Shown: positions 28,708 to 31,347 of the stretch, piece after piece | Numbering within the stretch: position 1 is the stretch's first letter | Layout of the letters: the number at the start of each line of letters is the position of its first letter | Assembly (NCBI GenBank): GCA_963804995.1 | Contig: CAWDSK010000003.1 | Span: 992,001 to 1,056,000 of the forward strand | DNA length: 64,000 nucleotides | Reading direction: 5' to 3' | Origin: an uncultured Acidobacteriota bacterium | GTDB taxonomy: Bacteria > Acidobacteriota > Terriglobia > UBA7540 | The notes under the pieces: generated by a model | Told to the model about the DNA's origin: nothing | What the model saw: only the letters and a program-made list of their open reading frames with translations | Databases searched by the model: none | Position numbers and translations under genes: made by a program

Positions 28708-28887
28708 ATTGACCTTTCCTCCACCCATTTTTTGGGGTACTCGCGCTTTTTGGTGGGAACTAGCTCGCCACTCCCCGCTACAGCCCACATCTGGGACGCA
28801 CATCTGGGACTTGACCAGCACCTTGATTCCTGACAAATTGTCTTGTTGGGCTTTGCTGAAATTACTGTTGAGGAGCGAATTATCGCC

Positions 28888-29211
28888 GTGAATGATCCGA
28901 CCAAATTACCCGCGTTGGAAGCCCCACAGTCTGGGGCGGCATTGAAGCGTGCGGACAACGCCCTTTACCAGGAAAGCCGGTTGGTGGCCCGGGCCCTGGG
29001 GGCGGAAATCGACACGGACGCCAAGGAAGTTCATTTCCGTGAAGTGTACAACAGTGACGACCTGATCCTGCCCGAGGAATGCGAGTTCCAAAAGTATCGT
29101 CTCATGATTCAGCGCATCGCTGACGCCTCACGCATTGACAAGCAATTCCCGGAAAAAGGCAGGGTTTTGAAAGGAGTCGTCGCGGAAATCCTGGGCTATA
29201 GAGAGCAGTGA
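28888..29211 (+). CDS. Hypothetical protein
   Basis: About 107 aa ORF with GAGGAG upstream and normal composition. Confidence 0.6.
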   Translation: MNDPTKLPALEAPQSGAALKRADNALYQESRLVARALGAEIDTDAKEVHFREVYNSDDLILPEECEFQKYRLMIQRIADASRIDKQFPEKGRVLKGVVAEILGYREQ

Positions 29212-29261
29212 CCTGGGCCATCAGTTTAGTTGCGGAAATCCTGGGCTATAGAGAGCAGTGA
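29182..29261 (+). repeat. Perfect 30-bp direct repeat separated by 20 bp
   Basis: GCGGAAATCCTGGGCTATAGAGAGCAGTGA at 29182-29211 and 29232-29261. Confidence 0.9.
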
Positions 29262-29423
29262 GCCGGATGCGCAGCCAATGCAGTGTGACCTGAGTCGCGG
29301 TACGTGTGACTACCAAGGGGGGTGTTGTAAAGCTGAGAATTACCCGAGCACGTGCCAGCCTCCCGACCCAATGGAAAAAAATTCCGGTCGGCGGTGGTAG
29401 TATGAAGATCGACGACGTTTGCG

Positions 29424-29924
29424 CTAGACCTGATGAAAGGGCATGACCTTCCAACGCCCGGAGGTCTCGCAGACGCGGCAACTACGGGGTATGCCGCCTT
29501 CCTCCTCGAGCATCGCCAGAAGCCGTTCATCAAACTTCAGGCCGACTTGGGTGGTGCAAGTCGGGCATTCCAGCACCACCCGCACCGAGAGTTGATCGCT
29601 CGGTTCCAGCGCGGGAAGTGGCACGCCCCACAAATCCTTTTCCGGGTCCAGGCACTCAACACCCCAATAGGTATACTCGGTCTTCATGTTTCGGATTTTC
29701 GCCACCACCCGAAAGGGCGCATCCTGGTAGGTAGAATGACTATAAAGGTGGATTTCCTGGTCCGGAATAAGTTGGTGAGTCATCCGAATCTTGGCACCGT
29801 GCTGATTTACCACAACGGTGACCGAATCTTCTGTAAAAACGATCCCGCGATAATCAGTCCCGAAGACTCGGATGGGGACAGATATAGCAATACGGCAACT
29901 TCGCCGGGATTGAAAATCTGGCAT
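29424..29924 (-). CDS. PilZ-like domain protein with C-terminal zinc ribbon
   Basis: RRSCRI (RxxxR), VNQHGAKI, WGVE; CPTC...CRVC; AGGAG RBS. Confidence 0.7.
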   Translation of the reverse strand: MPDFQSRRSCRIAISVPIRVFGTDYRGIVFTEDSVTVVVNQHGAKIRMTHQLIPDQEIHLYSHSTYQDAPFRVVAKIRNMKTEYTYWGVECLDPEKDLWGVPLPALEPSDQLSVRVVLECPTCTTQVGLKFDERLLAMLEEEGGIPRSCRVCETSGRWKVMPFHQV

Positions 29925-30168
29925 AAGTCGTACTCCTATTAAGTTTGGCCTGGTGCAAGTGGGAGGGATTGTATCCGAGAGAGCTTGGGGTTTCAAGTCA
30001 CAAAGTAGTAATTACCCTGATGGATAGGTTAGATGGCGGGTAGCCTTGGACTGGGCGGTTGGGCTTCTAATGTAGTACGTCATGGACGGATGGGTTACAG
30101 CGAGTAGCACGATCCCCCCGGCTTGGGGTCCGCGCTTTTTCTTTGGGTTGGGGGCTACGCAATTTGCC

Positions 30169-30702
30169 TCATCCTTGGCGTCGATCCCACCGATTACCGA
30201 AGCGGGGTAGTGTGTCACGGCGGGGGCAGGCCATCGGGCGATCGGGTGAACAAGGAATCGGGCCATCTGGCCATCGCGCCATCGGGTCATTTGAAGGCCG
30301 CCCAATTCTCCGTTGATTGCGACCTCATGTTCCGACCCCAACCTACCGATAACCGATACGGGGAAGTGCGTCACGGCGGGGGCAGGTCGGTGGGGGGAGC
30401 CATTGGCGATTGGGGTGGGTCCGGCAATCTTCGATTTCCGATTTTGGATTAGTGCAGTGGTCCGGCAAATTTGTGATTTGCGAATTGCGATTTGTGATTT
30501 TTGAAGTCCGTCTCTGACTCATCTTCTTAGCTAACACCACCGATAATCGATAAGGGGTGTCACGGCGGGTGGGCCATCGGTTCATTGAATCATTGGGTCA
30601 TTTAGTAATTTGGGATTTGTGATTGGCGATTTTTGAAGTCGCAGATTGGTTCATCTTTTCATTGGGACCAACCGATTACCGATGTGGGGAAGTGTGTCAC
30701 GG
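30169..30702. repeat. Four-unit non-coding array TCAT-N16-ACCGATWACCGA-N3-GGGGWAGTGYGTCACGG
   Basis: Units start at 30169, 30325, 30519 and 30651; the 16-nt spacing is identical in all four. Confidence 0.85.
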
Positions 30703-30788: not shown

Positions 30789-30919
30789 GCGCCGAGCGCC
30801 TTGGACTGCGGTCGCAGCAGCTACCGCTTTCCGGCTTTGGTTCATGCGGGAAATGTAGATGGGGTGGAGGGAGAATGGCGGTAGCTGCCGTTACCGCAGT
30901 CAAGGCGCCTTCGGCACGC
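30789..30919. repeat. REP doublet of a further family (GCGCCTTGGACTGCGGT..GCAGCTACCGC and its inverse)
   Basis: Inverted arms read directly. Confidence 0.7.
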
Positions 30920-30998: not shown

Positions 30999-31347
30999 GT
31001 AGCGCGGACCTCCGCCGTTGAGGTTCGCGGTTCTTCCTGTGCCATTTGAGCCAATGTATCGTGACGAAGAAAGAGTTGCGGCGCGACCGTCTGAGATTCG
31101 TGGGTTTGCCACATGAAGAACCGCGGACCCCAAAACCGGGGGACCGCGCTACGAAACATGGCCGCGCTACGCTTGCTGAGATTCGTGGGTTTGCCATATG
31201 AAGAACCGCGGACCCCAAAACCGGGGGACCGCGCTACGAAGCATGGCCGCGCTACGCTTGCTGAGATTCGTGGGTTTGCCATATGAAGAACCGCGGACCC
31301 CAAAACCGGGGGACCGCGCTACGAAACATGGCCGCGCTACGCTTGCT
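30999..31347. repeat. Inverted copy of the GTAG-CGCGG REPIN with an 85-bp unit tandemly triplicated
   Basis: Units at 31091, 31176 and 31261. Confidence 0.9.

Follow-up and report, generated by a model that had tools for sequence, protein, structure and literature searches.

A four-unit array beside a PilZ gene

The window, a 64,000-nt stretch of a contig from an uncultured Acidobacteriota bacterium, contains four co-oriented units that lie between a divergent PilZ-domain gene and a group of REP-like hairpins (Table 1). The units follow one another at periods of 156, 194 and 132, as the original prediction had described, and all four 16-mers that it quoted from between the conserved boxes are present. 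Unit 3 carries the two changes ascribed to it, a C-to-T substitution after the −10 box and the loss of 5 nt from the GGGGRAGTG block. The units are separated by differing microsatellites, again as claimed, for which TRF returned 8-, 7-, 8- and 7-nt arrays; the types found in the third body also flank four-helix-bundle genes elsewhere in the genome. The TTTGAAG said to precede units 2–4 is there, but it stands 35, 19 and 19 nt from the TCAT and is hence at a variable distance.

Table 1. Features of the array and its surroundings (positions in the window)
Feature	Position	Strand	Details
PilZ-domain gene, divergent	29424–29924	−	Pfam; own sigma-70-like site 29996–29968
REP-like hairpin family fragment directly 5′ of unit 1	30104–30141		82% inverted match to 31115–31152
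Unit 1, sigma-28-type promoter	30169–30203	+	Sequence; profile score 80; geometry as in native promoters
Unit 1, −35 pentamer TCATC	30169–30173	+	Followed by a 15-bp spacer
Unit 1, −10 box ACCGATTA	30189–30196	+	
Unit 1, discriminator	30197–30203	+	
Unit 1, conserved G-rich block	30204–30220	+	Putative +1 at 30204
8-nt microsatellite, body 1	30257–30290	+	TRF
Unit 2, core	30325–30376	+	Sequence; profile score 74
Unit 2, −35 pentamer	30325–30329	+	
Unit 2, −10 box ACCGATAA	30345–30352	+	Putative +1 at 30360
7-nt microsatellite, body 2	30469–30504	+	TRF
Unit 3, core, degenerate	30519–30565	+	Sequence; profile score 32
Unit 3, −10 box of intact promoter	30539–30546	+	Putative +1 at 30554; 5-nt deletion in downstream block
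8-nt then 7-nt microsatellites, body 3	30570–30636	+	TRF
Unit 4, core	30651–30702	+	Sequence; profile score 68
Unit 4, −35 pentamer	30651–30655	+	
Unit 4, −10 box ACCGATTA	30671–30678	+	Putative +1 at 30686
Long REP-like hairpin 3′ of array	30789–30917		About 35–75 BLAST matches in the genome
GTAG-type REP-like hairpin cluster	30999–31347		One inverted copy and three 85-bp tandem copies; about 50–150 BLAST matches in the genome

The PilZ-like character of the divergent neighbour was borne out by Pfam (E = 3.9 × 10−5). Because the motif is missing at 28 of 28 PilZ loci in relatives, the PilZ gene is an incidental neighbour of the array. A 122-aa ORF without a Pfam match (28843–29211) adjoins PilZ in many congeners, and a 38-nt direct repeat (92%; 29179–29266) spans its 3′ end. 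On the other side, unit 4 would transcribe into the cluster of GTAG-type hairpins. An Rfam scan of the window gave no family at the gathering score and weak hairpin matches on the downstream REP only, and no terminator in the window rose above chance. The labels REP, RAYT and toxin–antitoxin are ones that we take to fit wherever no computed basis is given.

A dispersed repeat family of one genus

The profile search of this genome and of other Acidobacteriota that had been proposed as a check was performed, and the array proved not to be unique but one of 75–83 clusters in the genome. In the 7.55-Mb genome, a profile built from strict matches recovered 186 copies, which form 75 clusters with all members of a cluster on one strand, and a relaxed pattern added 19 copies, for 205 copies in 83 clusters; the block-shuffled genome held no site scoring at least 4 with the core profile. 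The repeated unit is a core of about 55 bp, and the clusters are intergenic and co-oriented. The core pattern was found in 21 of 28 same-genus genomes versus 0 of 32 others, and a looser pattern in 15 of 17 congeners and in 10 of 103 other genomes of the family, with 1–6 matches each. An exact scan restricted to a single genome for each species found 44 loci, the titles of which all read Acidobacteriota or Terriglobia, while viral contigs, phages and plasmids contained no match to the core pattern. Regular 95–97-bp tandem arrays of up to 11 units were seen in relatives (L026, at G017:C24:419000-433000; L027–L029; L034).

The 16-mers, read earlier as mutually dissimilar, instead form subfamilies tied to the sequence upstream of them (154 distinct among 186) and are conserved at some positions, spacer position 15 being C in 95% of the 186 copies. 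Searches of the openly accessible literature listed no account of this repeat family.

Probable sigma-28 promoter anatomy of the core

From its sequence, the core very probably has the anatomy of a sigma-28 promoter. The −10 octamer (RCCGATAA) is GCCGATAA in 83 copies and ACCGATAA in 69, which makes 152 of 205, and most of the others are one position off; the −35 pentamer is TCATC in 96 and TCATG in 49 of the 205. With the test anchored on the −10 box and the G block alone, leaving TCA free, 157 of 170 copies proved to have TCA exactly 20 nt upstream; in 5 it stood at 19 or 21, and 8 lacked it. A subfamily with a 6-nt discriminator keeps the TCA spacing of 20 (10 of 11). Landmarks further downstream drift, with CACRG at other offsets in 12 of 85 copies and the first TCGG spread over more than 20 positions. 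The units of relatives have offset 20 in 130 of 134, at loci fetched with a pattern that demanded this offset once per locus.

The suggested comparison with flagellin promoters, extended to other native promoters, places the spacing, one base longer than canonical, within the native range. Intergenic RCCGATA sites that stand before genes and outside repeats number 90; the −35 pentamer is found at offset 19 in 9 of them and at offset 20 in 13, with 1–4 at other offsets. Nineteen of the 22 native-promoter genes were scanned; they include cheA, two HDOD genes, one GGDEF gene, four sensor kinases and one RAYT gene, and ten of the 19 have no motility link. The fliC gene of this genome also lies behind a sigma-28-type native promoter. 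Across the genus, the HDOD gene that follows motAB in the flagellar cluster has T(C/T)A(T/C)G at offset 20 in 22 of 24 loci (one at 19, one cut off). For the fliC promoter the offset is 19 at 19 of 23 loci and 20 at a single one, with none found in three. As the HDOD promoters share the geometry, TCATG-N15-GCCGATA, and their spacer varies freely among the genomes of the genus, the fixed-length, variable 16 nt of the array is best understood as a promoter spacer. Native pentamers end in G, whereas the commonest array −35, TCATC, ends in C. A sigma-28 consensus for the genus, with two spacer lengths, also comes out of the analysis.

The E. coli FliA sites in Table 2 of PMC4183435 combine a TCAAG/TAAAG-like −35 and a GCCGATAA-type −10 with a variable spacer of fixed length and have offset 19, those with TCAAG at flgKL and fliL included. 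The array cores resemble them in −10 type, −35 type and fixed-length variable spacer. Relative to these sites and to the fliC promoters of the genus, the cores have a spacing one base longer and a −35 that is mostly TCATC; they carry an extra block, are repeated about 200 times and do not stand before genes.

The putative start of transcription is placed at the first G of GGGG on two grounds: the ATG of the two intact RAYT genes lies 15 nt from the octamer start, the same offset as that G, and published FliA start distances fit this position (10.1101/188474). The two RAYT (Y1 transposase) genes (G000:C2:467478-468029 and C3:777557-778108, G000 being the genome of the window) appear leaderless under a sigma-28-type promoter that is placed right after their left-end hairpin, and five RAYT fragments keep the promoter. 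When RAYT promoters were tested as the ancestor of the family, their spacer score was near the 95th percentile of random and below the family values.

The genome encodes FliA, FlgM and flagellin. It also has three orphan FliA/WhiG paralogues (G000:C9:163013-164116, C4:209953-210867 and C6:5069-6106), two of them in mobile-looking gene blocks, which makes the paralogues further candidates for the cognate sigma of the core. The paralogues have N-terminal extensions, and similar proteins (37–49% identity) occur in most congeners. Offset-20 HDOD promoters are present in two congeners, G011 and G012, in each of which a single FliA-like match was found, and for this reason FliA is the likelier reader of the core. 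FliA occurs in 26 of 28 same-genus genomes (one split); in G003, which has 7 motif matches, it lies in two overlapping pieces with a possible frameshift (C42:20019-20838). Since at least five genomes of the genus have FliA and no motif match, the presence of FliA does not predict motif copy number, which runs from 0 to 145 in congeners whose FliA is near-identical.

A conserved block downstream of the −10 box

The putative promoter is followed by a block, CGA-WRY-GGGG-R-AGTG (−6 to +9), that is conserved as strongly as the −10 box, with variation in the spacer and in the N3. Each half predicts the other. A scan with the promoter half gave 182 matches, 176 of them family members and five more belonging to a subfamily with a 7-nt deletion, and all 165 matches of a scan with the downstream half carry the promoter half too. 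Of the 205 copies, 189 have CGA and 172 have GGGG, versus 0 and 1 of 22 native sites, a set that was filtered against family-like sites; the unfiltered HDOD promoters have CGA in 1 of 23 and GGGG in 2 of 23. FliA does not account for this block. Its conservation, its coupling to the promoter and its rarity at native promoters imply a second recogniser.

The arrays face other repeats

No gene family is constant among the 335 neighbours of the clusters. The clusters have a direction. In 66 of 82 clusters the gap that follows the last unit is larger than the one ahead of the first (medians 944 versus 217 nt), a count whose P value overstates its significance, as array copies are not independent. 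The next gene downstream runs towards the cluster in 44 cases and in the same direction in 38, and other repeats cover a median of 73% of the 500 nt downstream versus 16% upstream.

A block of AT-rich boxes lies 165–510 nt downstream on the same strand in 21–22 of 83 clusters, never upstream and once on the other strand; in relatives it takes this position at 16 of 44 loci and never any of the other three positions. It marks the 3′ end of a repeated element that has a sharply bounded palindromic head and an inward-directed promoter of sigma-70-like type; within 2.1 kb, 21 of 83 clusters meet the head palindrome. Some copies carry a gene for a helical protein, which had no Pfam match, one weak PHROG match and only hypothetical Atlas clusters; Foldseek gave no match at E 0.001 and VIA-align only generic helical-bundle rows. 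The element is exemplified by G000:C4:37243-38394 (L055), alongside about 57 AT-box loci and 15 loci with the gene or a fragment of it, and its protein is Terriglobia-wide. As 18 of 30 head-plus-box elements have no array and the array of the window has REP-like hairpins rather than an AT-box block downstream, the arrays are accessories of the element and not its obligatory end. This directional link to a repeated element offers a handle on how repeats without a transposase spread in Acidobacteriota.

Several arrays contain, or are followed by, pairs of small genes that we take to be toxin–antitoxin-like (G000:C6:1663035-1664230, C5:123992-124604, C4:106564-107779 and others); small genes near arrays number 24 downstream versus 15 upstream, a difference that is not significant.

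Mosaicism and a proposed mode of spread

The units are mosaics. In 523 pairs the promoter sides are alike and the bodies unlike, in 88 pairs both sides are alike, and the reverse case of like bodies accounts for 288. One body type leads into several next-promoter types, and a block of three units followed by AT boxes recurs at several loci. Fifty-two of 61 loci in relatives have orthologues in this genome, 9 of the 52 (six sites here) being near a copy, versus 5% of genes generally. One filled/empty pair was found, between diverged species, with a 1,452-nt island of two units facing a 143-nt gap. The case named at the outset as fatal, variable spacing and an origin as the end of a decayed IS or MITE, was found in part: the repeat is dispersed and looks mobile, but its spacing is fixed and no IS or MITE end was found. 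Left boundaries vary by 0–159 nt, no inverted repeat, hairpin or fixed left end was detected at the array and no terminal inverted pair surrounds it, which speaks against a MITE.

The first 50 nt after the putative start are G-skewed (0.54 and 0.38). Between +10 and +60 a G4Hunter score of at least 1.2 is reached by 130 of 205 copies, compared with 4.8% of intergenic controls and a single one of the 22 native promoters. In relatives the score is reached after +9 in 33 of 134 units; with these lower scores, an R-loop step would not be general.

The explanation that best fits these observations, to which we give a probability of roughly 60%, is a genus-wide dispersed repeat whose core combines a likely sigma-28 (FliA) promoter with the opening bases of the transcript; the repeat's G-rich non-coding RNA would aid spread by recombination. 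FliA would read the core, with transcription starting at the first G of GGGG. The RNA would open the DNA of neighbouring repeats, probably helping the module to spread. Tandem duplication would create new units, as would exchange at cores, microsatellites and REP hairpins, and new sites would be seeded by hitch-hiking on the AT-box element and on REPs. In the most speculative step, modelled on Neisseria, the G-clustered 5′ RNA would form an R-loop and turn each copy into a recombination hotspot. Competition for FliA would be a side effect, since the copies outnumber native sites about 9 to 1. If the arrays are active, some nine in ten sigma-28 sites of the genome lie in repeats, a natural test of decoy promoters tuning a regulon.

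A stronger version, which we put forward tentatively and hold to be rather improbable, makes the repeat a selfish module that uses the flagellar sigma: its G-rich RNA would open adjacent repeat ends and so copy the module together with its partner elements, while a second factor would read CGA-N3-GGGG-R-AGTG. This would link the shuffling of the genome to the motile phase, and most sigma-28 sites of the cell would belong to repeats.

Relation to described promoter-bearing repeats

Neisseria REP2 and Borrelia IR-A are described in PMC3184786 as dispersed promoter repeats that lack terminal inverted repeats, traits that the arrays share as judged by sequence. REP2 and IR-A also contain a ribosome-binding site plus an ATG as well as two stem-loops, and stand directly before genes, whereas the arrays are tandem, of sigma-28 type and face repeats; fusion to an RBS and ATG was not seen, the next gene being a median of 944 nt away in either orientation, nor were the stem-loops, no fold being conserved. 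Correia elements and putative mobile promoters are further cases of promoters that move, and Correia elements produce RNA from adjacent intergenic DNA (PMC3184786; PMC3575422). A Correia element is a MITE, in contrast to the arrays, for which neither a fixed left end nor a terminal inverted repeat was found. On sequence grounds, then, the array appears to work like a mobile promoter as REP2, Correia elements and IR-A do.

The model for the R-loop step is garP-G4 of Neisseria, where a promoter firing into a G-rich tract has been shown experimentally to start pilin gene conversion through an R-loop (PMC13463697). It is one site serving one gene, whereas the arrays amount to about 200 sites with no target gene and an R-loop that is only predicted. 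The arrays would be new relative to described promoter-bearing repeats in being built on an alternative sigma factor, arranged in tandem and facing other repeats, a combination for which searches of the openly accessible literature listed no example.

Alternative readings

In another reading the core serves mainly as a site that a mobile system, such as the AT-box element or an HUH nuclease, recognises or cuts, and the promoter is part of this site or is read by an element-borne sigma-28 paralogue. We consider this unlikely. It would explain why CGA-N3-GGGG-R-AGTG is as conserved as the −10, always coupled to it and rare at native promoters, and why a quarter-odd of the clusters (21 of 83) end in the sharply bounded head palindrome of the element; RAYT genes share the promoter geometry, and two of the three FliA paralogues sit in mobile-looking blocks. 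The absence of any detected hairpin, inverted repeat or fixed left end argues against it, as do an AT-box element protein that matches no nuclease or recombinase by Pfam or by fold and the offset-20 promoters of G011 and G012, each with one FliA-like match.

That each unit encodes a sibling sRNA with a shared 5′ end, acting in trans on mRNAs or a protein in the flagellar phase, is quite unlikely. The original prediction had proposed this together with tandem sigma-28-like promoters; the promoters are well supported, with a one-base-longer spacing that is native and conserved in the genus, but the sibling sRNAs found no support. The first 9–17 nt are indeed conserved, sigma-28-dependent sRNA paralogues are known from Campylobacter (PMC4626219) and E. 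coli (PMC10578931), and in 23 of the 28 short units of relatives (95–104 bp) the G-run of the first 7 nt could pair with a 7-nt pyrimidine stretch that ends within the following −35. In the genome of the window, however, no fold is conserved (mean folding z −0.17), periods range from 105 to 551 nt, a closing stem occurs in only 29 of 118 longer units and the window has no terminator above chance. Complements of the 5′ ends are not enriched near start codons, apart from those in one IS1634 element in 15 copies, and the loci are mostly not position-conserved among relatives. The genome also gave no match to CsrA, which removes a CsrA sponge from consideration. The bodies are mosaics of other repeats without a conserved fold, length or target seed. 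Campylobacter CjNC1 and CjNC4 are likewise sigma-28-driven non-coding RNA paralogues, but PMC4626219 describes two conserved 44-nt RNAs with predicted targets, compared with hundreds of mosaic bodies here.

It is distinctly unlikely that the arrays are maintained by the host to soak up sigma-28 and so set the threshold for late flagellar expression. About 205 near-consensus sites stand against about 22 native candidates and face away from genes, and for E. coli it has been proposed that extra FliA sites titrate the factor (PMC4183435); such a sink is hard to reconcile with the range of copy numbers among congeners with near-identical FliA, and would require no downstream block and no link to the AT-box element.

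Micro-peptides starting at a minus-strand TCAN, also suggested earlier, are very improbable. All variants are possible starts (ATG 154, GTG 15, CTG 12 and TTG 7 of 188), and the frame stays open slightly longer (median 27.5 versus 18 and 24.5 codons; P = 0.025, for copies that are not independent). Any base fits the variable position, however, the peptides of the window (5, 13, 59 and 18 aa) are unrelated, and Shine–Dalgarno pairing equals that of shuffled spacers (−5.25 versus −5.3 kcal/mol), a purely compositional signal. Least credible of all is the proposal that the 16-mers serve an RNA-guided system in trans as its guides. In its favour are their fixed length, the resemblance of the TCAN of the core to the right ends of IS200/IS605 elements, and 66 near matches in the genome versus 34 for shuffled 16-mers. 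Against it, 18 of these near matches trace to a single repeated element, a deleted copy and a family member that had been missed, and the rest share no flank; the 16-mers form subfamilies and lie upstream of the putative start, the native HDOD promoter has the same fixed-length variable spacer, the 92% complete genome has no match to Cas1 or to TnpB/Cas12f (PF07282), and the recommended comparison with phages, plasmids and viral contigs gave no 16-mer match.

Other repeats and rejected origins

Several further readings of the core were rejected. A tRNA-like acceptor stem occurs only in the short units of relatives. The four-helix-bundle cassettes were discarded as a source: the microsatellites are common to both, but the core is present in the flanks of 0 of 15. 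These four-helix-bundle genes (PF05635; 15 loci, for example C1:253363 and C6:757664) are mostly flanked by inverted 7–8-nt microsatellites, the unit of which differs at each locus. An IS1634 end, suggested by a common GAAGTGCG, was dismissed as a short match to one element in 15 copies, followed by no terminal features. The left end of this IS1634-family transposase element (G000:C2:21830-23719 and 14 others) can pair with the predicted 5′ RNA of unit 2 (−31 kcal/mol), which counts as a single independent observation.

The 5′ end of a group II intron was considered on account of GGGGGA followed by GTGTG, which is like the junction of one intron family; the motif was at the junction in 0 of 49 reverse-transcriptase loci, and GTGYG is often shortened. 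One group II intron is present in 38 near-identical copies (for example C2:581151 and C6:832881), with 49 reverse-transcriptase matches in all. Nearly every copy has entered a REP-like hairpin, of the family found at 30999–31347 in the window, at one and the same point of its foot, a pattern that suggests a REP-targeting burst.
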